Of a stretch of DNA of 64,000 bases, positions 2,710 to 55,057 are shown in pieces. Below the pieces are notes generated by a model. The model made no database searches. It was not told where the DNA came from and worked only from the letters and a program-made list of their open reading frames with translations. Made by a program: the position numbers and the translations under genes. How positions within the stretch are numbered: the stretch's first letter is position 1; every line of letters starts with the position of its first letter. This stretch comes from a plasmid: the sequence record CP109674.1. One strand, 5' to 3'.

Positions 2710-6070
<3,361 letters not shown>

Positions 6071-13434: not shown

Positions 13435-15460
13435 ATGTCACGACGCCATATTTTCACCGAACGGCAGCGAGCAGCGCTGTTCGATCTGCCCACGGACGAA
13501 CTGTCGCTACTGAAGTTCTACACGCTGGGCGATGATGACCTGGAAAACATTAGGCAGCGCCGCAGACCGGAAAACAGGATTGGCTTTGCCCTGCAACTTT
13601 GTGCCTTACGATATCCGGGCCGTGCACTGGCTCCTGGTGAGATGATCCCGCGTGAAGTCCTTTCCTTCGTCGGTGCTCAGCTTGGAGTTCCGGCTGATGC
13701 GCTTCTCACTTATGCCACACGGCGCCAAACCCGTCAGCAGCACATGGACACGCTGCGCGAAATTTACGGCTACAAGACCTTCACGGGCCGTGGTGCCCGT
13801 GATCTGCGGGAGTGGACTTTCGGCCAGGCCGAAGATGCCAGATCAAACGAGGATCTTGCTCATCGTTTTATTGTGCGGTGTCGGGAAACTTCCACCATTC
13901 TGCCCGCAGTATCGACAATCGAGCGCTTGTGCGCGGATGCTCTGGTCGCCGCTGAGCGGCGGATTGAAACGCGGATTGCGGAAAATTTAACAGCGGATGT
14001 TCGCGATCACCTGGACAAACTTCTGAGTGAAATGCTCGCCGGCAATATCAGTCGTTTCATCTGGCTTCGCAACTTCGAGGTTGGTAACAACTCGGCTGCT
14101 GCTAACCGTTTGCTCGACAGGCTCGAATTTCTGCGTACCCTGAATATCAATCATAGTGCTTTGGCCAGCATACCTGCCCATCGCATTGCCCGGCTGCGTC
14201 GGCAGGGTGAACGCTACTTCACCGACGGTTTGCGTGACATCACTTCGGACCGCCGCTGGGCGATCCTTGCCGTCTGTGTTGTGGAGTGGGAAGCGGCGAT
14301 TGCTGATGCCATAGTCGAAACCCATGACAGGATCGTAGGAAAAACCTGGCGGGAAGCGAAGCGCCAGCATGACGAAACAATTTCCGGCTCTAAAGCCACA
14401 CTCACGGATACGATCCGTACCTTCACCGCGCTGGGAGCTTCGTTGCTTGAGGCCCGCAGTGACGGAACCCCGCTGGAGATGGCTGTCGCCAGTTCGGTTG
14501 CATGGGACCGGCTCGCTCAACTGGTAGCGACAGGGACTCAACTCAGCAACACGCTAGCCGATGAGCCTCTTGCATATGTCGGGCAGGGATACCATCGCTT
14601 TCGTCGTTATGCGCCCCGCATGTTGCGCTGTCTGAAGCTCGAAGCCGCGCCGGTCGCCGGACCATTGGTAGCAGCAGCTTTGTCGATCGGAGAGATGAAA
14701 GGTGTTGCATCGCCAGAAAGGCGTTTCCTGCGGCCCAGCTCCAAATGGAACCGTCATTTACGAGCTCAGGAAAAAGGAGATACCCGTCTTTGGGAAGTGG
14801 CGGTACTCTTTCACCTCCGGGATGCTTTTCGTTCCGGAGATGTCTGGCTCGCTCATTCGCGCCGCTATGGTGACCTCAAGCAGGTACTGGTGCCGATGAT
14901 CGCGGCGCAGGAAAATGCAAAACTGGCCGTGCCTTCCAACCCACAGGATTGGCTGGCAGACAGAAAGGCGCGACTCACGATCGCTCTTAAGCGGCTGGCC
15001 CGGGCTGCCCGTAACGGCACTATTCCGCACGGTAGCATAGAAGATGGAACGTTGCGGATCGACAGGTTGACAGCAGACGTGCCGGATGGTGCCGAGGCAC
15101 TCATACTGGATCTGTATCGCCGAATGCCGTCCGTTCGGATTACCGACATGCTGCTTGAAGTTGATGCAGCCCTTGGTTTCACAGATGCGTTTACCCATCT
15201 GAGAACCGGGGCTCCATGTCGCGACCGGATCGGTCTGCTCAACGTCCTGCTCGCTGAAGGGCTCAATCTGGGCCTGCGTAAGATGGCGGAAGCTACAAAC
15301 ACGCATGATTACTGGCAGCTCTCACGCCTTGCCCGCTGGCATGTTGAAAGCGAAGCCATGAACCAGGCATTGGCAATTGTGGTGGCCGCGCAGGGTAAAC
15401 TGCCGATGTCACGCGTCTGGGGGATGGGCACGTCAGCATCGAGCGATGGTCAGTTTTTCC
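13435..15460 (+). pseudogene. tnpA: Tn3-family transposase TnpA, 5' part (aa 1 to about 675), truncated by IS26
   Basis: N-terminus MSRRHIFTERQRAALFDLP… has Tn3-family TnpA architecture. The ORF reads into the IS26 IR at 15461. The 3' part lies at 23625-24504 on the minus strand, and the two parts join in frame (…SSDGQFF|PTARHGE…). Confidence 0.85.
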
Positions 15461-16280
15461 GGCACTGTTGCAAATAGTCGGTGGTGATAAACTTATCATC
15501 CCCTTTTGCTGATGGAGCTGCACATGAACCCATTCAAAGGCCGGCATTTTCAGCGTGACATCATTCTGTGGGCCGTACGCTGGTACTGCAAATACGGCAT
15601 CAGTTACCGTGAGCTGCAGGAGATGCTGGCTGAACGCGGAGTGAATGTCGATCACTCCACGATTTACCGCTGGGTTCAGCGTTATGCGCCTGAAATGGAA
15701 AAACGGCTGCGCTGGTACTGGCGTAACCCTTCCGATCTTTGCCCGTGGCACATGGATGAAACCTACGTGAAGGTCAATGGCCGCTGGGCGTATCTGTACC
15801 GGGCCGTCGACAGCCGGGGCCGCACTGTCGATTTTTATCTCTCCTCCCGTCGTAACAGCAAAGCTGCATACCGGTTTCTGGGTAAAATCCTCAACAACGT
15901 GAAGAAGTGGCAGATCCCGCGATTCATCAACACGGATAAAGCGCCCGCCTATGGTCGCGCGCTTGCTCTGCTCAAACGCGAAGGCCGGTGCCCGTCTGAC
16001 GTTGAACACCGACAGATTAAGTACCGGAACAACGTGATTGAATGCGATCATGGCAAACTGAAACGGATAATCGGCGCCACGCTGGGATTTAAATCCATGA
16101 AGACGGCTTACGCCACCATCAAAGGTATTGAGGTGATGCGTGCACTACGCAAAGGCCAGGCCTCAGCATTTTATTATGGTGATCCCCTGGGCGAAATGCG
16201 CCTGGTAAGCAGAGTTTTTGAAATGTAAGGCCTTTGAATAAGACAAAAGGCTGCCTCATCGCTAACTTTGCAACAGTGCC
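15461..16280 (+). mobile_element. tnp26: IS26 copy 1 (820 bp); tnp26 CDS 15524-16228
   Basis: 14-bp IRs GGCACTGTTGCAAA at both ends. The 234-aa Tnp26 begins MNPFKGRHFQRDIILWAVRWY. The left flank is the 8-bp sequence GTTTTTCC. Confidence 0.95.
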
Positions 16281-16342
16281 GTTCTCCGAATGAAAGCCTG
16301 TCCTCAGCATAGTACCGGGAAGGAGGGAGTGACCATCTCATT
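16281..16342 (-). mobile_element. 62-bp fragment of the left end of an IS5075/IS4321-like (IS110-family) element, truncated by IS26
   Basis: This is the exact reverse complement of 22524-22585, which is the left end of the complete IS110-family element. It abuts 17 bp of the Tn21-type IR. Confidence 0.75.
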
Positions 16343-16354
16343 AAATAAAGCACG

Positions 16355-19321
16355 CTAAGCCGGTTGCAGCGGCCGTAGCGGCCTGAACTTGCCCGCGCCG
16401 ATCTTGGCGCTGCTGCGCCAGAGGTAATCGCCGGTCAGGTTGATGTGCTCCCAGCCGAGCGGCGACAGGTACTGCAACAGGCCGTCATCGACGGCTTGAC
16501 CGTGGCCACGCAAGGCGTTCGCGGCCCGCTCCAGATAGACCGTGTTCCATAGCACGATGGCCGCCGTCACCAGGTTGAGGCCGCTGGCCCGGTAGCGCTG
16601 CTGCTCGAAGCTGCGGTCGCGGATTTCCCCCAGGCGGTTGAAGAACACGGCGCGGGCCAGCGCGTTGCGCGCCTCGCCTTTGTTCAGCCCGGCATGCACG
16701 CGGCGGCGCAGCTCGACGCTTTGCAGCCAGTCCAGGATGAACAGTGTGCGCTCGATGCGTCCCAGCTCACGCAGGGCGACGGCCAGGCCGTTCTGGCGCG
16801 GGTAGCTGCCAAGCTTCCTGAGCATCAGCGAGGCCGTCGCCGTGCCCTGCTTGATCGAGGTGGCCATCCGCAGGATTTCATCCCAATGGGCGCGGACGTG
16901 CTTGATGTTGAGCGTGCCGCCGATCATCGGTTTCAACGCCTCGTAGGTGGCATCGCCCTTCGGGATGTAGAGCTTGGTGTCGCCCAGGTCACGAATGCGC
17001 GGGGCGAAGCGGAAGCCCAGCAGGTGCATCAACGCGAAGACGTGGTCCGTGAACCCTGCCGTGTCGGTGTAGTGCTCCTCGATCCGCAGGTCGGATTCGT
17101 GATACAGCAGGCCGTCGAGCACGTAGGTCGAGTCGCGCACGCCGACGTTCACGACCTTGGTGTGGAACGGCGCGTACTGGTCGGAGATATGGGTGTAGAA
17201 CGTCCGCCCTGGGCTGCTGCCGTATTTCGGATTGATGTGGCCGGTGCTCTCGGCCTTGCTGCCGGTGCGGAAGTTCTGGCCGTCCGACGATGACGTGGTG
17301 CCGTCGCCCCAATGCCCGGCGAAGGGATGTCGGAACTGCGCGTTGACCAGCTCGGCCAGTGCCGCCCCGTAGGTTTCGTCGCGGATGTGCCAGGCTTGCA
17401 GCCAGGCCAGCTTGGCGTAGGTCGTGCCGGGGCACGATTCCGCCATCTTGGTCAGGCCCAGGTTGATCGCGTCGGCGAGGATCGTGGTCAGCAACAGGTT
17501 TTTGTCCTTGGCCAGGTCGCCTGACTTCAGGTGGGCGAAGTGCCGGGTGAAGCCCGTCCATTCGTCTACCTCCAGCAGCAATTCGGTGATCTTGACGTGC
17601 GGTAGGATCATCGCCGTCTGGTCGATCAGGGCCTGTGCGGTATCGGGCACCGCCGCATCGAGCGGCGTGATCTTCAGGCCCGACTCCGTGATGATGGCGT
17701 CCGGCAGCTCGTTGGCCAGCGCCATGCGGTTGACGGTGGCGAGCTGCGTTTCCAGCAGCGTCAGCCGGTCATGCAGGTACTGGTCGCAATCGGTGGCCAC
17801 GGCCAGCGGCAATTCGCTGGCCTGCTTGAGGCTGGCGAATTTCGCGAGCGGCACCAGGTAGTCCTCGAAGTCCTTGAACTGGCGCGAGCCTTGCACCCAG
17901 ATGTCGCCGGAGCGCAGCGCGTTCTTCAGCTCCGACAGCGCGCACAGTTCGTAGTAGCGCCGGTCGATGCCGGTGTCGGTCATCACCAGCTTCTGCCAGC
18001 GCGGCTTGATGAACTCGGTCGGCGCGTCGGTGGGCACCTTGCGGGCGTTGTCGCTGTTCATGCTGCGCAGCACCTCGATGGCGTCGAGTACGTCCTTGGC
18101 GGCGGGCGCGGCCCGCAACTTGAGCACGTCGAGAAATTCCGGCGCGTAGCGGCGCAGCGTGGCGTAGCTCTCGCCGATGCGGTGCAGGAAATCGAAGTCC
18201 TCGGGTTGCGCGAGCCGCTGCGCTTCGGTGACGCTCTCGGCGAAAGCATCCCAGGACATGACGGCCTCGATGGCGGCGAACGGATCGCGGCCCGCTTGCT
18301 TGGCCTCGATCAGCGCCTGGCCGATGCGCCCGAACAGCCGCACCTTGGCATTGATCGCCTTGCCGGATGCCTGGAACTGCTGCTGATGCTTGTTCTTGGC
18401 GGCATTGAACAGCTTGCCCAGGATGCGGTCATGCAGGTCGATGATTTCGTCGGTGACGGTGGCCATGCCCTCGATGGCGAGCGCCACCAGGGTCGCGTAA
18501 CGCCGCTGCGGCTCGAACTTCGCCAGGTCGGCGGGCGTCATCTGGCCGCCCTCGCGGGCGATCTTGAGCAGCCGGTTCTGGTGAACCAGCCGCTCGATGC
18601 CGGAGGGCAGGTCGAGCGCCTGCCACGCCTTGAGGCGTTCGATGTGTTCCAGCATGTGCCGCGAGTTCGGTTTGACCGGGGATTGCCGCAGCCAGGCCAG
18701 CCACGTCGTCTTGCCGTTGTCGCGGCGCTTGAGCAGATCGTCGAGGCGACGGCGATGCACGTCCGTCAGCGGCTCAGCCAAGGCGTCGTAGAGACGCCGG
18801 TTGGCGCGGGTAATCGCTTCGGCGCTCGCCCGCTCGACGGCGTTGAGGGCGGGCACAATGACCGACTGCCGCCGCAGGTGCTCGATCAAGGCTCTGGCCA
18901 GCACGATGCCCTTGTCGGTTTGCATGGCCAGCTCGGTCAGCAACTGGACAGCCTGCCGGTAGTGGCCAATCGTGAACGGCTGGAAGCCGAACACCGTTTG
19001 CAGCTCGACCAGGTGCTCGCGTCGGGTCTGCTCACGCTGCCCGTACTCGTCCCAGCTTTCGATGCCGACCTTGAGCTGGTTGGCGACCAGTCTCAGCAAT
19101 GGCGGGAACGGTGGCTCATCAGCGCCAAGGATGACGCCGGGAAAGCGCAGGTAGCAGAGCTGCACCGCGAAGCCCAGCCGATTGGCCGGGCCGCGCCGCT
19201 GCCGGATGATGGAGAGGTCGCTTTCGCTGAACGTGTAGTGACGGATCAACTCATCCTTGGTGTCCGGCAACGCCAGCAGGCTTTCGCGCTCGGCGGCGGA
19301 GAGGATCGAACGGCGGGGCAT
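16355..19321 (-). CDS. tnpA: Tn21-subgroup transposase TnpA (988 aa)
   Basis: N-terminus [31 protein letters not shown]… and C-terminus …[14 protein letters not shown]. Length is as in Tn21 TnpA. The stop lies within the IR. Confidence 0.9.
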
Positions 19322-19473
19322 GCGGTTTCCTTCTTCTTGAAAACGTAGGTTTGTGACAAGCCCGCCAAGGCAACCGGCGCGGCACGGGAATCAAGGCATT
19401 GCGATTCTCGAAAATAGTTCTTGAAATTCTATTCTTGATTGCATATCATCTCAACGAGTTTCGATAAGAAAGG
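19322..19473. promoter_or_regulatory. AT-rich interval with TTCTTGA repeats between tnpA and the passenger operon; candidate res/promoter
   Basis: Repeats TTCTTGAAA … TTCTTGAAATTCTATTCTTGATT. This is the only sizeable non-coding gap adjacent to tnpA. Confidence 0.35.
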
Positions 19474-19770
19474 ATGCGCATGCGACCGTCTGTTGTGCTT
19501 GACATGAAGCGAAGCGCAGTGCGTGAAGCGGTAGGCCGCTTTCGCGCCGCGAACCCGCGCGTCTTCGGCTCGGTGCTGCATGGCACCGACCGGGATGGCA
19601 GCGACCTCGACCTGTTGGTCGATGCGCTGCCCGGTGCCACGTTGTTGGACTTGGGCGATTTGGAAGAAGAACTGAAATCGCTGCTCGGCGTTGACGTCGA
19701 TCTGCTGACTCCCGGCGACCTGCCGCCGAAGTTCCGGGCCAAGGTGCTCGCGGAGGCGCAACCGATATGA
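19474..19770 (+). CDS. mnt: MNT-type nucleotidyltransferase antitoxin
   Basis: 98-aa ORF with a nucleotidyltransferase motif (GS…HG…DRDGSDLDLLVD). Its end overlaps the start of hepT by 4 nt. Confidence 0.7.
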   Translation: MRMRPSVVLDMKRSAVREAVGRFRAANPRVFGSVLHGTDRDGSDLDLLVDALPGATLLDLGDLEEELKSLLGVDVDLLTPGDLPPKFRAKVLAEAQPI

Positions 19771-20168
19771 GCGAGAACCGCCTGCCCGATTACCTCGACC
19801 ACATTCAGCAGGCCGCAACCGATGCGCGCAGCTTCGTGGAAGGGATGGCCAAGGACGACTTCTTGGCCGACAAGCGCACCCAGCAGGCCGTCATCATGAG
19901 CCTGATCGTCATCGGCGAGGCGGCCACAAAGGTGATGGATGGCTACGTCGAGTTCACCCAGGCGCATGCCGACGTGCCGTGGCGCAGCATGCGCAATATG
20001 CGTAATCGCATGGCTCACGGCTATTTCGACATCAACCTCGATGTGGTGTGGGAGACGGTACAGGAATGGCTGCCGGCGTTGCTCCAGCAATTGCCCGCCG
20101 TGCGTCAGGATGCCGACGATGAAGACCGTAACGACAACTGTGAAAGAGGGATCTCCGATGACTGTTGA
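19767..20168 (+). CDS. hepT: HepT-like HEPN RNase toxin (DUF86)
   Basis: 133-aa ORF with an R-x4-HxY motif (RNRMAHGY), translationally coupled to the mnt gene. Confidence 0.7.
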   Translation: MSENRLPDYLDHIQQAATDARSFVEGMAKDDFLADKRTQQAVIMSLIVIGEAATKVMDGYVEFTQAHADVPWRSMRNMRNRMAHGYFDINLDVVWETVQEWLPALLQQLPAVRQDADDEDRNDNCERGISDDC

Positions 20169-20514
20169 ATCGAGAATATTTTCTGTAGCCGAGTATGTTC
20201 AGCCGTCCGAAGGCGAGCCTATTCGTTCCGTTGTGCTTGAAACCCGAGACTCAATTATCGTGGTTTGGCATGTCCATCCCGGGCAGGAAATTGCGGCTCA
20301 CATTCATCCTCACGGCCAAGACACGTGGACTGTTTTGTCGGGAATGGCTGATTACTTTCAGGGCAATGGGATTGTTCGTGCCCTCAGGGAAGGTGAGATA
20401 GCCGTGGCAAGACCGGGCCAAGTGCACGGGGCGCGAAATACAGGTACCGAGCCATTTGTGTTAGTCTCGGTTGTGGCATCAGCCAATGCCGGTTTCGTAT
20501 TGGCTGAGCGATAG
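20158..20514 (+). CDS. Cupin-domain protein
   Basis: 118-aa ORF with two cupin His-containing motifs (HVHPGQEIAAHIHPHGQD … GQVHGARNTG). Its start overlaps the hepT end. Confidence 0.6.
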   Translation: MTVESRIFSVAEYVQPSEGEPIRSVVLETRDSIIVVWHVHPGQEIAAHIHPHGQDTWTVLSGMADYFQGNGIVRALREGEIAVARPGQVHGARNTGTEPFVLVSVVASANAGFVLAER

Positions 20515-20768
20515 AGCCCAATCTCTGGAGTTGGTCCAATGAGCGGTCGGGGAGATAGGTAACAGACATGCAGCGGACACGGCTGCTAAACCAGGTCGCA
20601 AACCTCCTTGCGTCGCAGCGTGCCGCAAGCGACGCGATCAATCGAATGGGGTCGGCATGAGACTGAACACCATCCAGTTCCCGACCGCGTAGCCGCCTGT
20701 CCTGCCGATCAGGTCTTGACCATCGACGCCTGGGATCAGTCCTGAATGTTCTTGGAGACCACTACGTT

Positions 20769-21095
20769 ATGAGCCGCAGCCGCCGCAAAACACCCATCGT
20801 CGGGCACACGACCTGCGGCAGCGAGCGCGAGGACAAGAAGCTCTGGCATCAGCGCTGGCGCACCCGTGAGCGCACGGCGCTGACCAGCGCGTCGCCCGAA
20901 GCCCTGAGCGCCCATCTGCCCCTGCTGGAAAACCAGGCCAGCAGCGTCTGGTCGATGGGCAAGGATGGCCGCTCCTACTGGCCCGTCAAGCGCCAGGCCG
21001 CCACGGCGGATCGCATCGCCAATCACAAGGGACGCAACCCGCAAGAACGCGCCTCCCTGAAAAAGCGCCTGCTGCGCAAGTGGATGAGCAAATGA
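20769..21095 (+). CDS. Hypothetical basic protein (108 aa, Arg/Lys-rich)
   Basis: ORF with high-GC codon usage consistent with its neighbours. It overlaps the next gene by 16 nt. No recognisable family. Confidence 0.45.
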   Translation: MSRSRRKTPIVGHTTCGSEREDKKLWHQRWRTRERTALTSASPEALSAHLPLLENQASSVWSMGKDGRSYWPVKRQAATADRIANHKGRNPQERASLKKRLLRKWMSK

Positions 21096-21592
21096 AGCTC
21101 TCCTTCCATCAGCACATTGCGCTGTTCTGGATGATCGGTGCTCCGGGCGTCTTCGCGCCCGTGATCGAGAACGCCAAGCGGCCCGATGCCGGCGCCGTCA
21201 TGGCGTGGGGTGTCGCGATCGTGGCGGTGATGATCCTCTTCACCCCTTTGCTGCTGCGCTGTCCACCATTCCGGCGCTGGTATGGCCGGACGGATGCGCT
21301 GTCGGAGCGGCAGCGCCAGGCGCTTGCCGAGCGCGGCCTGCGCCGCTACTACCAGACCGCTTTCGATGACGGCTACGTGCCCCGCGTGATGCCCTACGTG
21401 TGGCGCATCATCTGGACGGTCGGCGGGTTGATGGCTGTGACCGCCGTACTGCCTACCAACACCGGACGGCCAGCCTTCGATGCCTTGGTGGTCTTCTCGA
21501 CCTGGTATCCGATAGGCGTGATGCTGCTGGTTTTCGCGTCGAGGCCCCTTGGCCGGTTGATTCGCCAAAGAGCACAGGAGCGGCGGAAATGA
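21080..21592 (+). CDS. Hypothetical integral membrane protein (170 aa, about 4 TM segments)
   Basis: Hydrophobic segments ALFWMIGAPGVFAPVI, VMAWGVAIVAVMILFTPLLL, IIWTVGGLMAVTAVL and VVFSTWYPIGVMLLVFA. There is an ATGA overlap with the downstream gene. Confidence 0.45.
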   Translation: MDEQMKLSFHQHIALFWMIGAPGVFAPVIENAKRPDAGAVMAWGVAIVAVMILFTPLLLRCPPFRRWYGRTDALSERQRQALAERGLRRYYQTAFDDGYVPRVMPYVWRIIWTVGGLMAVTAVLPTNTGRPAFDALVVFSTWYPIGVMLLVFASRPLGRLIRQRAQERRK

Positions 21593-21960
21593 GCACGTCA
21601 ACCATCGAGGCGCTGGCCAGCGCCTGGGCAAGGATTGCCGAGGAAGCGGAATTCCCCGCTGACTACGAGGGGACTGCCACACCACAAGCGCATCGGGCTA
21701 GCGAAGCTATTCAGGAGCAGATTCGGGAGCGCATCGTCGCCACCAACGACATGCGGCTGTTCAGCCTGCTGCACCTGCTGGGTCAGGCGTCGCTGCGCAT
21801 GGAGCAAGCGCTGTGGCCGGAGGATTACGAGCGGATGACGCGCGAGGTTGAGGAAGCCCTGCGGCAAGCCACCGACGCCAACGCCAGATCGTACACCCAC
21901 GAAGAAGTGATGCAGGCGATGCAGGAACGCATCGACCGGGCGCGAGACAAGCCATGTTGA
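21589..21960 (+). CDS. Hypothetical acidic alpha-helical protein (123 aa)
   Basis: Overlaps the previous gene by 4 nt and tnpR by 7 nt, which suggests an operon. Confidence 0.45.
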   Translation: MSTSTIEALASAWARIAEEAEFPADYEGTATPQAHRASEAIQEQIRERIVATNDMRLFSLLHLLGQASLRMEQALWPEDYERMTREVEEALRQATDANARSYTHEEVMQAMQERIDRARDKPC

Positions 21961-22511
21961 TTGGCTATGCGCGCGTCTCGACGCAGGATCAGAACCTGGA
22001 GCTGCAACGCGAAGCCTTGAGCAAGGCCGGATGTAAAAAGGTCTTCGAGGACAAGGTGAGTGGCACGCGGGCAGACCGGCCTGGCTTGGCCAAGACGCTC
22101 GAAATGCTGCGCGAAGGCGATACTTTGGTCGTCTGGAAGCTCGACCGGCTGGGCCGGTCGGTCAAGCAACTGGTCGATCTGGTCGGCGATCTGCACAAGC
22201 ACGGTGTCCAGTTCAGGAGCCTCACCGACTCCATCGACACCGGCACACCATCCGGGCGGTTCTTCTTCCACGTCATGGCGAGCCTTGCCGAAATGGAGCG
22301 CGAGCTGACCGTCGAGCGCACCCGCGCCGGGCTGGAAGTCGCCAAGCAGCTCGGCCGCAAAGGCGGCCGCAAGCCGAAGATGACCGACAGCAAGATCGAG
22401 TCGGCCAAGAAGCTGCTGGCCAGCGGGGTGCCGCCCAAGGACGTGGCCAAGAACCTCGGCGTGTCCATTCCGACGCTGTACCGCTGGGTGCCAGCCTCCA
22501 CGCACGCTTAG
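21954..22511 (+). CDS. tnpR: Serine resolvase TnpR (last gene of the passenger operon; stop inside the IR)
   Basis: 185-aa ORF with catalytic Ser motif (IGYARVSTQDQ) and a C-terminal HTH (IPTLYRW). It is adjacent to the inner 17 bp of the IR. Confidence 0.8.
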   Translation: MLIGYARVSTQDQNLELQREALSKAGCKKVFEDKVSGTRADRPGLAKTLEMLREGDTLVVWKLDRLGRSVKQLVDLVGDLHKHGVQFRSLTDSIDTGTPSGRFFFHVMASLAEMERELTVERTRAGLEVAKQLGRKGGRKPKMTDSKIESAKKLLASGVPPKDVAKNLGVSIPTLYRWVPASTHA

Positions 22512-22523
22512 CGTGCTTTATTT

Positions 22524-23591
22524 AATGAGATGGTCACTCCCTCCTTCCCGGTACTATGCTGAGGACAGGCTTTCATTCGGAGAACTATCATGGAAAACAT
22601 TGCGCTCATTGGTATCGATCTGGGTAAAAACTCTTTCCATATTCATTGCCAGGATCGTCGCGGGAAGGCTGTTTACCGTAAAAAATTTACCCGGCCAAAG
22701 TTGATCGAATTTTTGGCGACATGCCCCGCTACAACCATCGCAATGGAAGCCTGTGGCGGTTCTCACTTTATGGCACGCAAGTTGGAAGAGTTGGGGCATT
22801 CCCCAAAGCTGATATCACCACAATTTGTCCGCCCGTTCGTTAAAAGCAATAAAAACGACTTTGTCGACGCCGAAGCTATTTGTGAAGCTGCATCGCGTCC
22901 GTCTATGCGTTTTGTGCAGCCCAGAACGGAATCTCAGCAGGCAATGCGGGCTCTGCATCGTGTCCGTGAATCCCTGGTTCAGGATAAGGTAAAAACAACC
23001 AATCAAATGCATGCTTTTCTGCTGGAATTTGGCATTAGCGTTCCCCGAGGAGCTGCCGTTATTAGCCGACTGAGTACCATTCTTGAGGACAATAGTTTGC
23101 CTCTTTACCTCAGCCAGTTATTGCTGAAATTACAACAGCATTATCACTATCTTGTTGAGCAGATTAAAGATTTGGAATCCCAGTTGAAACGAAAGTTGGA
23201 CGAAGATGAGGTTGGACAGCGCTTGCTGAGCATTCCCTGCGTCGGAACACTGACAGCGAGTACTATTTCAACTGAGATTGGCGACGGGAAGCAGTACGCC
23301 AGCAGCCGTGACTTTGCGGCGGCAACAGGGCTTGTACCTCGGCAGTACAGCACGGGAGGTAGGACGACATTGCTGGGAATTAGTAAGCGAGGTAATAAAA
23401 AGATCCGAACTTTGTTGGTTCAATGTGCCAGGGTATTCATACAAAAACTGGAACACCAGTCTGGCAAATTGGCCGATTGGGTCAGGGATTTACTGTGCCG
23501 GAAAAGCAACTTTGTCGTCACTTGTGCTCTGGCAAACAAGCTGGCCAGAATAGCCTGGGCCCTAACGGCACGACAGCAAACTTATGTAGCA
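22524..23591 (+). mobile_element. IS5075/IS4321-like IS110-family element inserted in the Tn21-type IR; its right end is apparently truncated where it abuts the Tn5403-like IR
   Basis: It starts immediately after 17 bp of IR. The transposase ORF 22590-23609 (339 aa, begins MENIALIGIDLGKNSF…) reads through into the Tn5403 IR. The expected right-hand ~250 bp and the remaining 21 bp of the Tn21-type IR are absent. Confidence 0.7.
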
Positions 23592-23609
23592 GGGGTCGGT
23601 TCCGGCTGA
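22590..23609 (+). CDS. IS110-family (IS1111 subgroup) transposase; C-terminus possibly altered by truncation
   Basis: The DEDD transposase N-terminus IGIDLGKNSF is typical of IS110-family elements. The stop codon lies inside the adjoining Tn5403 IR. Confidence 0.7.
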   Translation: MENIALIGIDLGKNSFHIHCQDRRGKAVYRKKFTRPKLIEFLATCPATTIAMEACGGSHFMARKLEELGHSPKLISPQFVRPFVKSNKNDFVDAEAICEAASRPSMRFVQPRTESQQAMRALHRVRESLVQDKVKTTNQMHAFLLEFGISVPRGAAVISRLSTILEDNSLPLYLSQLLLKLQQHYHYLVEQIKDLESQLKRKLDEDEVGQRLLSIPCVGTLTASTISTEIGDGKQYASSRDFAAATGLVPRQYSTGGRTTLLGISKRGNKKIRTLLVQCARVFIQKLEHQSGKLADWVRDLLCRKSNFVVTCALANKLARIAWALTARQQTYVAGVGSG

Positions 23610-23629
23610 GGGCGAAATGACACCCTAAG
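23592..23629 (+). repeat. 38-bp terminal IR of the Tn5403-like transposon (tnpA end)
   Basis: Identical to 12702-12739. The tnpA stop lies inside it. Confidence 0.8.
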
Positions 23630-24504
23630 CTTTCGGTTCCTTGGGCCAAAGATATTCGCCAGTCAGTAGAATGTGCGCCCAGCCCAATGGGGATATGTGG
23701 GGAAGAAATTCAGGGGGAACATCCAACCCTTCGTTCCGCCGCTCCGTGACGGCATGACCAAGATGGACGGTATTCCAGTAAATGATCACCGCAGTCAATA
23801 AATTGAGCCCAGCGATTCGGTAGTGCTGCCCCTCTGTCGTGCGATCGCGAATTTCCCCCTGCCTCCCGATACGGAGCGCATTTTTGAGCGCATGGTGGGC
23901 CTCTCCCTTGTTAAGACCGATCTGAGCACGCCGCTGCATGTCCGTATCCAGGATCCACTCAATAATGAAAAGGGTCCGTTCAATACGACCAACTTCACGA
24001 AGCGCAACTGCAAGGTTGTTTTGTCGTGGGTAAGAAGCGAGCTTGCGCAGGAGTTGGCTGGGCCTGATTTTGCCAGCGGTCATCGTCGCGGCACAACGGA
24101 AAATATCAGGCCAGTTCGCAACGATAAGATCCTCCCGGGCTTTTCCACCTACCAACTTGCGTAACTCCCTGGGGGTCGTATCGGGATTAAATACGTACAA
24201 CCGCTTCGATGGCAGATCCCTGATTCGCAGAACGAGATTGTAGCCGAGCAGGCTACTGGCTCCGAACAAATGGTCGGTGAATCCTGCTGTATCGGCATAC
24301 TGTTCGCGAACATGGCGACCGACCTCGTTCATCAGTAGTCCATCGAGAATATACGGTGCCTCGCTCACGGTCGCCGGGATCGACTGACAAGCGAATGGCG
24401 CGAACTGGTCGCTTACGTGAGTATACGCTTTGAGGCCGGGAACAGAACCATATTTGGCATTGACCATGTTCATGGCTTCGCCATGCCGCGCTGTCGGGAA
24501 AAAC
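23625..24504 (-). pseudogene. tnpA: Tn3-family TnpA, 3' part (about 293 aa), the continuation of the fragment at 13435-15460
   Basis: C-terminal TnpA homology (…NAKYGSVPGLKAYTHVSDQFAPF…). Its junction with IS26 carries GGAAAAAC, the reverse complement of GTTTTTCC. Confidence 0.85.
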
Positions 24505-25947
<1,443 letters not shown>

Positions 25948-28850: not shown

Positions 28851-29670
28851 GGCACTGTTGCAAAGTTAGCGATGAGGCAGCCTTTTGTCTTATTCAAAGG
28901 CCTTACATTTCAAAAACTCTGCTTACCAGGCGCATTTCGCCCAGGGGATCACCATAATAAAATGCTGAGGCCTGGCCTTTGCGTAGTGCACGCATCACCT
29001 CAATACCTTTGATGGTGGCGTAAGCCGTCTTCATGGATTTAAATCCCAGCGTGGCGCCGATTATCCGTTTCAGTTTGCCATGATCGCATTCAATCACGTT
29101 GTTCCGGTACTTAATCTGTCGGTGTTCAACGTCAGACGGGCACCGGCCTTCGCGTTTGAGCAGAGCAAGCGCGCGACCATAGGCGGGCGCTTTATCCGTG
29201 TTGATGAATCGCGGGATCTGCCACTTCTTCACGTTGTTGAGGATTTTACCCAGAAACCGGTATGCAGCTTTGCTGTTACGACGGGAGGAGAGATAAAAAT
29301 CGACAGTGCGGCCCCGGCTGTCGACGGCCCGGTACAGATACGCCCAGCGGCCATTGACCTTCACGTAGGTTTCATCCATGTGCCACGGGCAAAGATCGGA
29401 AGGGTTACGCCAGTACCAGCGCAGCCGTTTTTCCATTTCAGGCGCATAACGCTGAACCCAGCGGTAAATCGTGGAGTGATCGACATTCACTCCGCGTTCA
29501 GCCAGCATCTCCTGCAGCTCACGGTAACTGATGCCGTATTTGCAGTACCAGCGTACGGCCCACAGAATGATGTCACGCTGAAAATGCCGGCCTTTGAATG
29601 GGTTCATGTGCAGCTCCATCAGCAAAAGGGGATGATAAGTTTATCACCACCGACTATTTGCAACAGTGCC
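28851..29670 (-). mobile_element. tnp26: IS26 copy 3; tnp26 CDS 28903-29607
   Basis: IRs and an identical Tnp26. Confidence 0.95.
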
Positions 29671-33335: not shown

Positions 33336-34155
33336 GGCACTGTTGCAAAGTTAGCGATGAGGCAGCCTTTTGTCTTATTCAAAGGCCTTACATTTCAAAA
33401 ACTCTGCTTACCAGGCGCATTTCGCCCAGGGGATCACCATAATAAAATGCTGAGGCCTGGCCTTTGCGTAGTGCACGCATCACCTCAATACCTTTGATGG
33501 TGGCGTAAGCCGTCTTCATGGATTTAAATCCCAGCGTGGCGCCGATTATCCGTTTCAGTTTGCCATGATCGCATTCAATCACGTTGTTCCGGTACTTAAT
33601 CTGTCGGTGTTCAACGTCAGACGGGCACCGGCCTTCGCGTTTGAGCAGAGCAAGCGCGCGACCATAGGCGGGCGCTTTATCCGTGTTGATGAATCGCGGG
33701 ATCTGCCACTTCTTCACGTTGTTGAGGATTTTACCCAGAAACCGGTATGCAGCTTTGCTGTTACGACGGGAGGAGAGATAAAAATCGACAGTGCGGCCCC
33801 GGCTGTCGACGGCCCGGTACAGATACGCCCAGCGGCCATTGACCTTCACGTAGGTTTCATCCATGTGCCACGGGCAAAGATCGGAAGGGTTACGCCAGTA
33901 CCAGCGCAGCCGTTTTTCCATTTCAGGCGCATAACGCTGAACCCAGCGGTAAATCGTGGAGTGATCGACATTCACTCCGCGTTCAGCCAGCATCTCCTGC
34001 AGCTCACGGTAACTGATGCCGTATTTGCAGTACCAGCGTACGGCCCACAGAATGATGTCACGCTGAAAATGCCGGCCTTTGAATGGGTTCATGTGCAGCT
34101 CCATCAGCAAAAGGGGATGATAAGTTTATCACCACCGACTATTTGCAACAGTGCC
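33336..34155 (-). mobile_element. tnp26: IS26 copy 4; tnp26 CDS 33388-34092
   Basis: IRs and an identical Tnp26. It abuts the IS21-family element. Confidence 0.95.
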
Positions 34156-54237: not shown

Positions 54238-55057
54238 GGCACTGTTGCAAAGTTAGCGATGAGGCAGCCTTTTGTCTTATTCAAAGGCCTTACATTTCAA
54301 AAACTCTGCTTACCAGGCGCATTTCGCCCAGGGGATCACCATAATAAAATGCTGAGGCCTGGCCTTTGCGTAGTGCACGCATCACCTCAATACCTTTGAT
54401 GGTGGCGTAAGCCGTCTTCATGGATTTAAATCCCAGCGTGGCGCCGATTATCCGTTTCAGTTTGCCATGATCGCATTCAATCACGTTGTTCCGGTACTTA
54501 ATCTGTCGGTGTTCAACGTCAGACGGGCACCGGCCTTCGCGTTTGAGCAGAGCAAGCGCGCGACCATAGGCGGGCGCTTTATCCGTGTTGATGAATCGCG
54601 GGATCTGCCACTTCTTCACGTTGTTGAGGATTTTACCCAGAAACCGGTATGCAGCTTTGCTGTTACGACGGGAGGAGAGATAAAAATCGACAGTGCGGCC
54701 CCGGCTGTCGACGGCCCGGTACAGATACGCCCAGCGGCCATTGACCTTCACGTAGGTTTCATCCATGTGCCACGGGCAAAGATCGGAAGGGTTACGCCAG
54801 TACCAGCGCAGCCGTTTTTCCATTTCAGGCGCATAACGCTGAACCCAGCGGTAAATCGTGGAGTGATCGACATTCACTCCGCGTTCAGCCAGCATCTCCT
54901 GCAGCTCACGGTAACTGATGCCGTATTTGCAGTACCAGCGTACGGCCCACAGAATGATGTCACGCTGAAAATGCCGGCCTTTGAATGGGTTCATGTGCAG
55001 CTCCATCAGCAAAAGGGGATGATAAGTTTATCACCACCGACTATTTGCAACAGTGCC
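54238..55057 (-). mobile_element. tnp26: IS26 copy 5; tnp26 CDS 54290-54994
   Basis: IRs and an identical Tnp26. Confidence 0.95.

Follow-up and report, generated by a model that had tools for sequence, protein, structure and literature searches.

A probable short copy of the Tn3-family transposon ISPa38, immobilised at both ends, with cargo between a predicted res site and an invertase-like resolvase gene

A 64,000-nucleotide stretch of plasmid DNA (sequence record CP109674.1; hereafter the window) contains, at positions 16343-22523, a Tn21-like transposase gene, tnpA, and a long divergent array of small genes that ends in a serine recombinase gene, tnpR, which raises the questions of what this element is and where its resolution site (res) lies. 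The original prediction did not recognise the gene set as that of a described transposon. An undescribed transposon is the wrong reading, as the element is already known and named, with literature from 2013 and 2025, and we conclude with high confidence that 16343-22523 is a copy of ISPa38 (TnPa38), a catalogued Tn3-family unit transposon of a TnSod9-like lineage within the Tn21 subgroup. This confidence is a single joint judgement, which covers the identity of the element, the placement of res, the model of a cargo slot between res and tnpR, and the immobilised state of the copy. The evidence places the predicted res in the spacer between tnpA and mnt, the first gene of the array, and thus upstream of the whole array rather than next to tnpR.

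The assignment to ISPa38 was made through the NCBI annotation of matching records, together with published descriptions. A megablast search against plasmids returned copies with 99-100% identity, the transposase of which is labelled 'Tn3-like element ISPa38 family transposase' by NCBI, and tblastn searches of PLSDB with the passenger proteins found approximately 1,500-1,600 records, with >1,400 covering most of the query. ISPa38/TnPa38 was described as a 6,455 bp element that has a putative res and eight genes, encoding a transposase, a resolvase and six passengers without known function, and K. pneumoniae plasmids hold 99%-identical copies with 5-bp duplications (PMC12466754); its cupin gene was recorded as an ISPa38 transposon passenger in 2013 (PMC3735179). 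These records and publications include a described transposon with the same gene content as 16343-22523, and the claim of novelty therefore fails. The whole element also forms contigs of exactly 6,455 bp in two species-representative assemblies (L022 and L088), which supports the identity since this is the length published for ISPa38 (PMC12466754), and the gene order in the window (tnpA, six passengers, resolvase) is that of both the annotated ISPa38-family copies and these contigs.

The published length of 6,455 bp is not matched by the window variant, which would measure approximately 6,215-6,224 bp with both of its inverted repeats (IRs) restored. The shorter length results from a 231-bp deletion, making the window copy a short variant of ISPa38. 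Comparison with the long form (L002, 6138-6368) mapped the deletion junction to 20137/20138; the deletion removes a 57-codon open reading frame (ORF) and replaces the last ~10 residues of the HepT protein (...DEDRNDKGMEP becoming ...DEDRNDNCERGISDDC), and the deleted form was found in Enterobacterales in a scan of species-representative genomes. In a direct comparison, the DNA of the window copy was 99.7-99.96% identical to the long form over the homologous parts, with the same eight genes in the same order and the same Tn21-type IRs; it differs in being 231 bp shorter, as is typical of Enterobacterales, and in lacking the outer 21 bp of both IRs. It also differs from the published description in annotation, as two of the six passengers listed there as 'unknown' were assigned here to MntA/HepT and one to the cupin family. 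The Tn3-type catalytic domain of large DDE transposases was present according to Pfam and NCBIfam, which places the element in the Tn3 family, and the predicted Tn21-like TnpA and Tn21-subgroup membership were borne out by the Tn21-type IRs and by 83-93% DNA identity of tnpA to TnAs3 and other Tn21-type tnpA genes. The classical Tn21 arrangement, a unidirectional res-tnpR-tnpA with a Tn21-type TnpR, was not found, as tnpR is divergent, located about 2.6 kb away and Gin-like. Tn6603 was considered as a second name for ISPa38 and was rejected, being a distinct Tn501-type carrier.

The tnpA gene (16355-19321, minus strand) encodes an intact Tn3-family DDE transposase of 988 aa (Pfam DDE_Tnp_Tn3, E=3e-158, and DUF4158; NCBIfam transpos_Tn3, 1310 bits with a cut-off of 500), and is 100% identical to copies in many genomes. 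As predicted, the ORF list contains no tnpR directly upstream of tnpA, and ORFs, Pfam and NCBIfam agree on a long plus-strand array with an MNT/HEPN pair at its head and tnpR at its far end. The first gene, mnt (19474-19770, plus strand), encodes a predicted MntA-type minimal nucleotidyltransferase antitoxin of 98 aa (Pfam NTP_transf_2 and Polbeta), with the GSx(n)DxD motif read from the translation as GS...DLD (GSVLHGTDRDGSDLDLLV). It is followed by hepT (19767-20168, plus strand), encoding a predicted HEPN/DUF86 ribonuclease (RNase) toxin of 133 aa (Pfam HepT-like, E=9e-27), in which RNRMAHGY constitutes the Rx4HxY RNase motif. The MNT gene lies upstream of the HEPN gene and the two overlap in an ATGA stop/start at 19767-19770; this toxin-antitoxin pair probably promotes stable maintenance of the transposon or of the replicon that carries it.

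Behind this pair, the plus strand continues with the cupin gene (20158-20514), a cargo gene encoding a Cupin_2 protein of 118 aa (Pfam Cupin_2, E=5e-13), and a spacer of 254 bp with no recognised feature (20515-20768). The next three genes are orf108 (20769-21095), encoding a small basic conserved protein, orf166 (21092-21592), encoding a hydrophobic, probably membrane-located protein and starting within the stop codon of orf108, and orf123 (21589-21960), encoding a conserved protein that is all-helical in its predicted model and overlapping the start of tnpR. The tnpR gene (21954-22511) encodes a serine recombinase of 185 aa from the invertase-like subfamily (Pfam Resolvase and HTH_7), and its stop codon falls within the right IR. 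The overlapping stop and start codons that the original prediction described along the operon are real, but the 254-bp gap at 20515-20768 splits cupin from orf108.

How these genes may have come to lie together is suggested by relatives of the element. Species-representative genomes were scanned with a conserved block from the tnpA-mnt spacer as pattern (the proposed accessory region of res, see below), which gave 111 loci, 107 of them evaluable, and tblastn annotation of the 111 loci and of plasmid relatives revealed a graded series on one backbone. In its simplest form tnpR directly follows res (L094, L045, L033 and L093); other members have res-mnt-hepT-tnpR (L026, L038, L053, L080, L097, L007 and TnSod9), res-mnt-hepT-cupin-tnpR (L005, L079, L086 and L098) or res-mnt-hepT-orf108-orf123-tnpR (L067), and the full ISPa38 array is the last form of the series. 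When compared with L005, a relative in which tnpR follows cupin, positions 20508-21930 of the window are a 1,423-bp insertion that includes the 254-bp spacer. The series therefore argues that the cargo sits in a slot between res and tnpR. We propose that the cupin gene and orf108, orf166 and orf123 are passengers, and that the slot would have been filled stepwise, with the MntA/HepT pair entering first, then cupin, and then orf108-orf166-orf123. In such an arrangement tnpR would be the last gene of a transcript starting at the res promoter.

The three small genes may be more than passengers, and one reading is that orf108-(orf166)-orf123 forms a working accessory module for the control of transposition or of the toxin-antitoxin pair, for instance by tuning TnpR or TnpA, or by providing further addiction or anti-defence functions. 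The genes overlap one another and tnpR by 4-7 nt, as expected for translational coupling to tnpR, and the orf108 and orf123 protein families are strongly conserved: orf108 has 333 homologues with 24 invariant columns in a 28-sequence alignment, and orf123 has 448 homologues with 88% mean column identity in a 30-sequence alignment. No member of either family has been given a functional name, and hardly any contains a Pfam domain. Furthermore, genes of this set (orf108 by itself, orf108 plus orf123, or all three) occur immediately behind other toxin-antitoxin pairs elsewhere in the Tn3 family, with three unrelated types of pair and no fewer than three distinct Tn3-family backbones involved. Metagenome contigs L120, L123 and L124 carry a DUF5397 plus Cas2/VapD-like pair and then orf108(-orf123)-tnpR, in Cupriavidus/Ralstonia (L125-L127) genes of the set follow Gp49/HTH_37 with a TnpC_reg-family gene, and in the P. 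aeruginosa plasmid p201330-IMP (L003) they follow another toxin-antitoxin pair, with a 61-bp remnant of the tnpR 3′ end after the orf123 homologue. The orf108-orf123 relatives L067, L120 and L003 lack orf166. A plasmid of the Rickettsiales symbiont Candidatus Megaera polyxenophila (L004) has a 30%-identical orf108 homologue (5001-5318) directly behind hicA-hicB and before a Fido-domain gene. If true, an accessory module would explain both this recurrence after unrelated toxin-antitoxin types and the coupling to tnpR.

We nevertheless consider this reading doubtful. Family members that lack orf108-orf123, namely TnSod9 and the forms res-tnpR and res-mnt-hepT-tnpR, have a wide distribution, hence the genes are dispensable for the backbone; orf108 also occurs outside transposons; and the co-occurrence could be mere hitch-hiking in a shared cargo slot. 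Neither domains nor folds gave a functional clue. None of the three proteins had a significant match in Pfam, NCBIfam, PADLOC or PHROGs, with only marginal PHROGs matches (E>0.003). The AlphaFold model of orf108 is helical and too poor for a fold search (predicted local distance difference test score, pLDDT, of 66), and that of orf123, with five helices (pLDDT 75), matched nothing in the PDB with an E-value below 1 using Foldseek.

TnpR resembles invertases much more than it does classical resolvases. In the PDB, TnpR matched Gin with E=3e-71 and gamma-delta resolvase with E=1e-29, and its identity is 64% to Mu Gin, 89% to the TnpR of TnSod9 and 49% to a TniR. A 26-bp gix/hix-like dyad at 19334-19359, TTCTTGAAAACG-TA-GGTTTGTGACAA, is located twelve bases upstream of the tnpA start and is proposed as res site I, the crossover site. 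It is identical at 19/26 positions to Mu gix as read from the Mu genome (TTCCTGTAAACC-GA-GGTTTTGGATAA), and occurs as a single copy in the 64-kb window, with none expected by chance. The dyad arms are kept in diverged relatives, including TnSod9, and the central dinucleotide is TA here and TT, AG or TC in relatives. The proposed accessory region (subsites II/III, ~19385-19467) is a conserved block, AATCAAGGCNTTGCNNTTCTCNAAAATAGTTCTTGAAA, which is nearly invariant among relatives with proteins that are 67-90% identical; dyad arms and block are both more strongly conserved than the coding sequence. Within the block, TTCTYGAAA half-sites are repeated at 19405 and 19418, and 19405-19419 forms an inverted repeat with 19453-19467. 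The block overlaps a divergent pair of promoter-like sequences, TTGAAA-17-TATCAT on the plus strand (19421-19449, towards mnt) and TTGAGA-17-TAGAAT on the minus strand (19454-19426, towards tnpA), each matching at 10/12 positions.

A further indication came from insertions in other genomes. The Tn402/Tn5053 transposon family targets res sites (PMC7765201), and a 25-bp terminal repeat of the Tn402/Tn5053 type was found 10-15 bp upstream of the block in 30/107 loci, at positions that correspond to 19374-19379 of the window, between dyad and block; this insertion point is empty in the window itself. The 30 junctions represent 21 distinct combinations of repeat variant and position, all within 6 bp, many of the insertions being independent, and the plasmid loci L002 and L006 have the same type of insertion with the elements in opposite orientation. 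Dyad, conserved block, promoter-like sites and these res-hunter insertions all lie in the tnpA-mnt spacer and are lacking from the 254-bp spacer between cupin and orf108, and res is accordingly placed in the former.

Two additional types of insert were observed in this region. Seven loci (L024, L032, L034, L052, L061, L092 and L114) share another foreign end (...GGGTGAAATTCACA) at the same res position, ~13 bp upstream of the block, which suggests that a second kind of element also targets this res site. In L010, L016, L027, L030, L096 and L108, a further serine recombinase gene with 53-56% identity to TnpR lies just ahead of the res block, at a distance of ~90-615 bp, and terminates at a Tn402-type repeat; the start of tnpA and res are separated in L010 and L108 by an insert of just ~1-1.5 kb. 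These inserts may be defective res-hunter elements that keep little beyond tniR.

The placement of res in the tnpA-mnt spacer competes with a reading that gives tnpR a separate res and promoter, located in 20515-20768 or directly ahead of the gene, with the upstream genes being unrelated cargo and the tnpA-mnt spacer a promoter region only. The 254-bp spacer is the only sizeable non-coding gap within the array and contains two short inverted repeats, and the original prediction had suggested a search for resolvase-binding dyads both there and in 19322-19473. Such mapping gave the gix-like dyad and the half-sites in 19322-19473 and none in 20515-20768, where there was no gix-like dyad, no TTCTYGAAA half-site cluster, no resolvase half-site dyad, no sigma-70-like promoter and no Rfam match. 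Moreover, relatives with the same tnpR (L005, L007 and TnSod9) lack the 254-bp spacer, in relatives without cargo the conserved block near tnpA is immediately followed by tnpR, and the res-hunter insertions cluster at 19374-19379 and not in the 254-bp spacer. Hence a separate res immediately upstream of tnpR, which would have made the genes before it unrelated cargo, was not found, and we regard it as highly improbable.

The likeness of TnpR to Gin also allows for its being a true DNA invertase, flipping a segment as an expression switch instead of resolving cointegrates. This is suggested by the 64% identity to Mu Gin, by invertases being the best matches of TnpR in both the PDB and PHROGs, and by the gix-like dyad. 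Inversion needs two inverted crossover sites, but the dyad is single, and neither a second gix-like site within three mismatches nor an invertible segment was found in the 64 kb. Inversion sites have an asymmetric core that is fixed, whereas the core here is the palindromic TA and varies among relatives, the accessory half-site cluster flanks the dyad as it does in res, and tnpR is placed where a Tn3-family element needs a resolvase. A subfamily of invertase-like resolvases is, moreover, already known, having been established for ISXc5 according to the citation of Liu et al. 1998 in PMC12217951, and we therefore give hardly any credence to an invertase. The suggestion that the res-to-tnpR half stems from a Tn402/Tn5053-family transposon, with the recombinase a TniR and the element a Tn21-Tn5053 hybrid, came from B. 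vietnamiensis pBVIE02, in which the same mnt-to-tnpR array adjoins tniA-tniB-tniQ, and was rejected as having next to no likelihood, since what lies at the junction is a 25-bp terminal repeat belonging to a Tn402-like element that inserted into an ISPa38 res, with the right IR of ISPa38 intact on the other side, and TnpR is 49% identical to a TniR versus 89% to the TnpR of TnSod9.

For an ISPa38 copy with res in the tnpA-mnt spacer, protein families and anatomy suggest the following course of events. In an intact element, TnpA would act on the 38-bp terminal repeats and form cointegrates by replicative transposition, which the Gin-like TnpR would resolve at res, with the gix-like dyad at 19334-19359 as crossover site and the block at ~19385-19467 as accessory sites. 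TnpR bound at res would repress transcription of both tnpA and mnt-hepT-...-tnpR, since the accessory block overlaps the divergent promoters.

Several points weigh against parts of this picture. Binding of TnpR and resolution at res are inferred, and the exact subsites II/III within 19385-19467 could not be assigned, as half-site orientation and spacing gave no unique solution. The invariance of the block among the 111 loci is partly built in, since the block was the search pattern; TnSod9, L005, L006 and L007, which were found by other routes, also keep it. Co-transcription across the 254-bp gap is inferred solely from its having neither a strong terminator nor any promoter that could be recognised. 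The NCBIfam scores of the toxin-antitoxin pair (MntA_antitoxin 36 bits, HepT 37 bits) are both below the 60-bit equivalog cut-off, and the toxin activity of HepT in the window copy, which has the altered tail of the short form, is no more than predicted. Finally, in P. aeruginosa a cointegrate of chromosome and plasmid with an ISPa38 copy on either side was reported to persist, and P. aeruginosa copies lacking target duplications were also reported (PMC12466754); in view of this cointegrate, resolution may be inefficient in some settings.

The ends of the window copy explain its present state. The left end consists of the inner 17 bp of a 38-bp Tn21-type IR (16343-16359, AAATAAAGCACGCTAAG) and the right end of the inner 17 bp of its counterpart (22507-22523, CTTAGCGTGCTTTATTT, the reverse complement of the left), with the outer 21 bp missing from both. 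The IRs are complete on the otherwise near-identical copies L001 and L002, which show the full repeat to be GGGGTCGTCTCAGAAAACGGA+AAATAAAGCACGCTAAG, and an intact right IR is present at 8743-8780 of L002. Targeting of Tn21-family IRs by the insertion sequences (IS) IS4321/IS5075 is established, according to the citation of Partridge & Hall 2003 in PMC11187229. A complete IS4321-type copy of 1,327 bp lies between the 21-bp outer and 17-bp inner halves of an IR in the near-identical plasmid L001 (1736-3062), and both insertions in the window split the IR into 21 + 17 bp in the same way. The predicted interruption of both IRs by IS5075/IS4321-like elements thus agrees with the 17-bp remnants, with a 62-bp end on the left and with a DEDD transposase on the right. 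The IRs had been described as cut after exactly 17 bp, and these 17 bp are indeed present, but they are the inner part of a 38-bp IR, with the IS inserted 21 bp in from the tip.

On the left, the 62-bp relic of an IS4321/IS5075-type element (IS1111-group; 16281-16342, minus strand) equals the reverse complement of 22524-22585 without a mismatch, and the IS4321 end in L001 matches it as well. The relic abuts an IS26 copy that ends at 16280 (15461-16280, plus strand; terminal repeats GGCACTGTTGCAAA at 15461-15474 and 16267-16280, transposase ORF 15506-16228), which truncates the left end and removed the remainder of the element, as had been predicted. On the right, an IS4321/IS5075-type element (22524-23591, plus strand; Pfam DEDD_Tnp_IS110 and Transposase_20) had been considered complete, but has 1,068 of 1,327 bp, lacks the 3′ non-coding end, and aligns to the complete L001 copy only up to the last sense codon. 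Its transposase ORF (22590-23609; NCBIfam transpos_IS110, 341 bits) keeps all 334 codons and reads five codons into the IR of Tn5403, which cuts the element, with a loss of 259 bp at the 3′ end. This Tn5403 remnant (23592-24504, minus strand) comprises a 38-bp IR, GGGGTCGGTTCCGGCTGAGGGCGAAATGACACCCTAAG, at 23592-23629 and the 3′ part of a tnpA annotated as 'Tn5403 family transposase' in L001, and is cut at 24505 by a second IS26 copy (24505-25324, minus strand; terminal repeats at 24505-24518 and 25311-25324).

IS4321-type elements split both IRs, and we propose that the outer repeat halves were later lost to IS26 at the left end and to Tn5403 at the right end. With each IR lacking its outer 21 bp, no ends are left for TnpA to act on, and the window copy is, judged from its sequence, a fossil in a resistance region that cannot be mobilised by its own transposase. 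Five IS26 copies are present in the window (15461-16280, 24505-25324, 28851-29670, 33336-34155 and 54238-55057), and the first two, oppositely oriented, bracket the ISPa38 remnant, as is typical of an IS26-built resistance region. The first IS26 cuts another Tn3-family tnpA at 13435-15460, of which ~675 codons of the 5′ part remain, and the 3′ end of a TetR-type repressor gene (25273-25929, 218 aa) overlaps the end of the second IS26.

As a discovery this copy carries little weight, being a dead remnant of a named and widespread element in an IS26-rich resistance region. In the ISPa38/TnSod9 lineage itself the cargo is located between the predicted res and a tnpR of invertase-like type, and therefore the toxin-antitoxin pair and all passengers are probably under the control of the resolvase, which takes further the published view of toxin-antitoxin genes as belonging to the Tn3 transposition module. 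In addition, the res of this lineage is a frequent landing site for the Tn402/Tn5053 family, the mover of class 1 integrons, making the element a potential carrier, and the three small conserved genes are found in Tn3-family transposons of several kinds.

Comparison with known systems places these features in context. In the res-hunter carriers Tn6603, Tn1013 and Tn21 with In2 (PMC7765201), Tn402/Tn5053 elements are inserted in res, between site I and the next subsite as reported for Tn6603, and likewise in the ISPa38 relatives; the window copy has no such insertion, and the backbone and resolvase type differ. With the Gin/Hin systems the element shares a gix-like proposed crossover site, but the window has a single such site with proposed accessory sites, and thus no inversion system. 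Its TnpR is, like the resolvases of the ISXc5 (TnXc5) subfamily, closer to Gin/Hin invertases than to gamma-delta/Tn3 resolvases, a likeness to ISXc5 that was drawn from its description. The transposons Tn21, Tn501 and TnAs3 have tnpA DNA with 83-93% identity to that of the window and 38-bp IRs of the type recognised by IS4321/IS5075, but their res-tnpR-tnpA is unidirectional with a Tn21-type resolvase, homology to the window ends at the tnpA start codon, and the resolvase of the window is Gin-like and located at the opposite end.

TnSod9 was listed by Lima-Mendez et al. (PMC7157771) as one HEPN/MNT-bearing Tn3-family transposon, in the Tn21 subgroup, with tnpA divergent from antitoxin-toxin-tnpR. 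Its sequence (L121, 12945-17290) has the same backbone as the window, tnpA <- res -> mnt-hepT ... tnpR-IR, with like IRs and the same gix-like site I by the tnpA start, and the proteins are 85% (TnpA), 77% (Mnt), 74% (HepT) and 89% (TnpR) identical. In TnSod9, tnpR directly follows hepT, whereas in ISPa38 the cupin gene and orf108-orf166-orf123 lie between them. Given these identities and the likeness of IRs and spacer, ISPa38 is, on sequence comparison, a TnSod9-type element with extra cargo.

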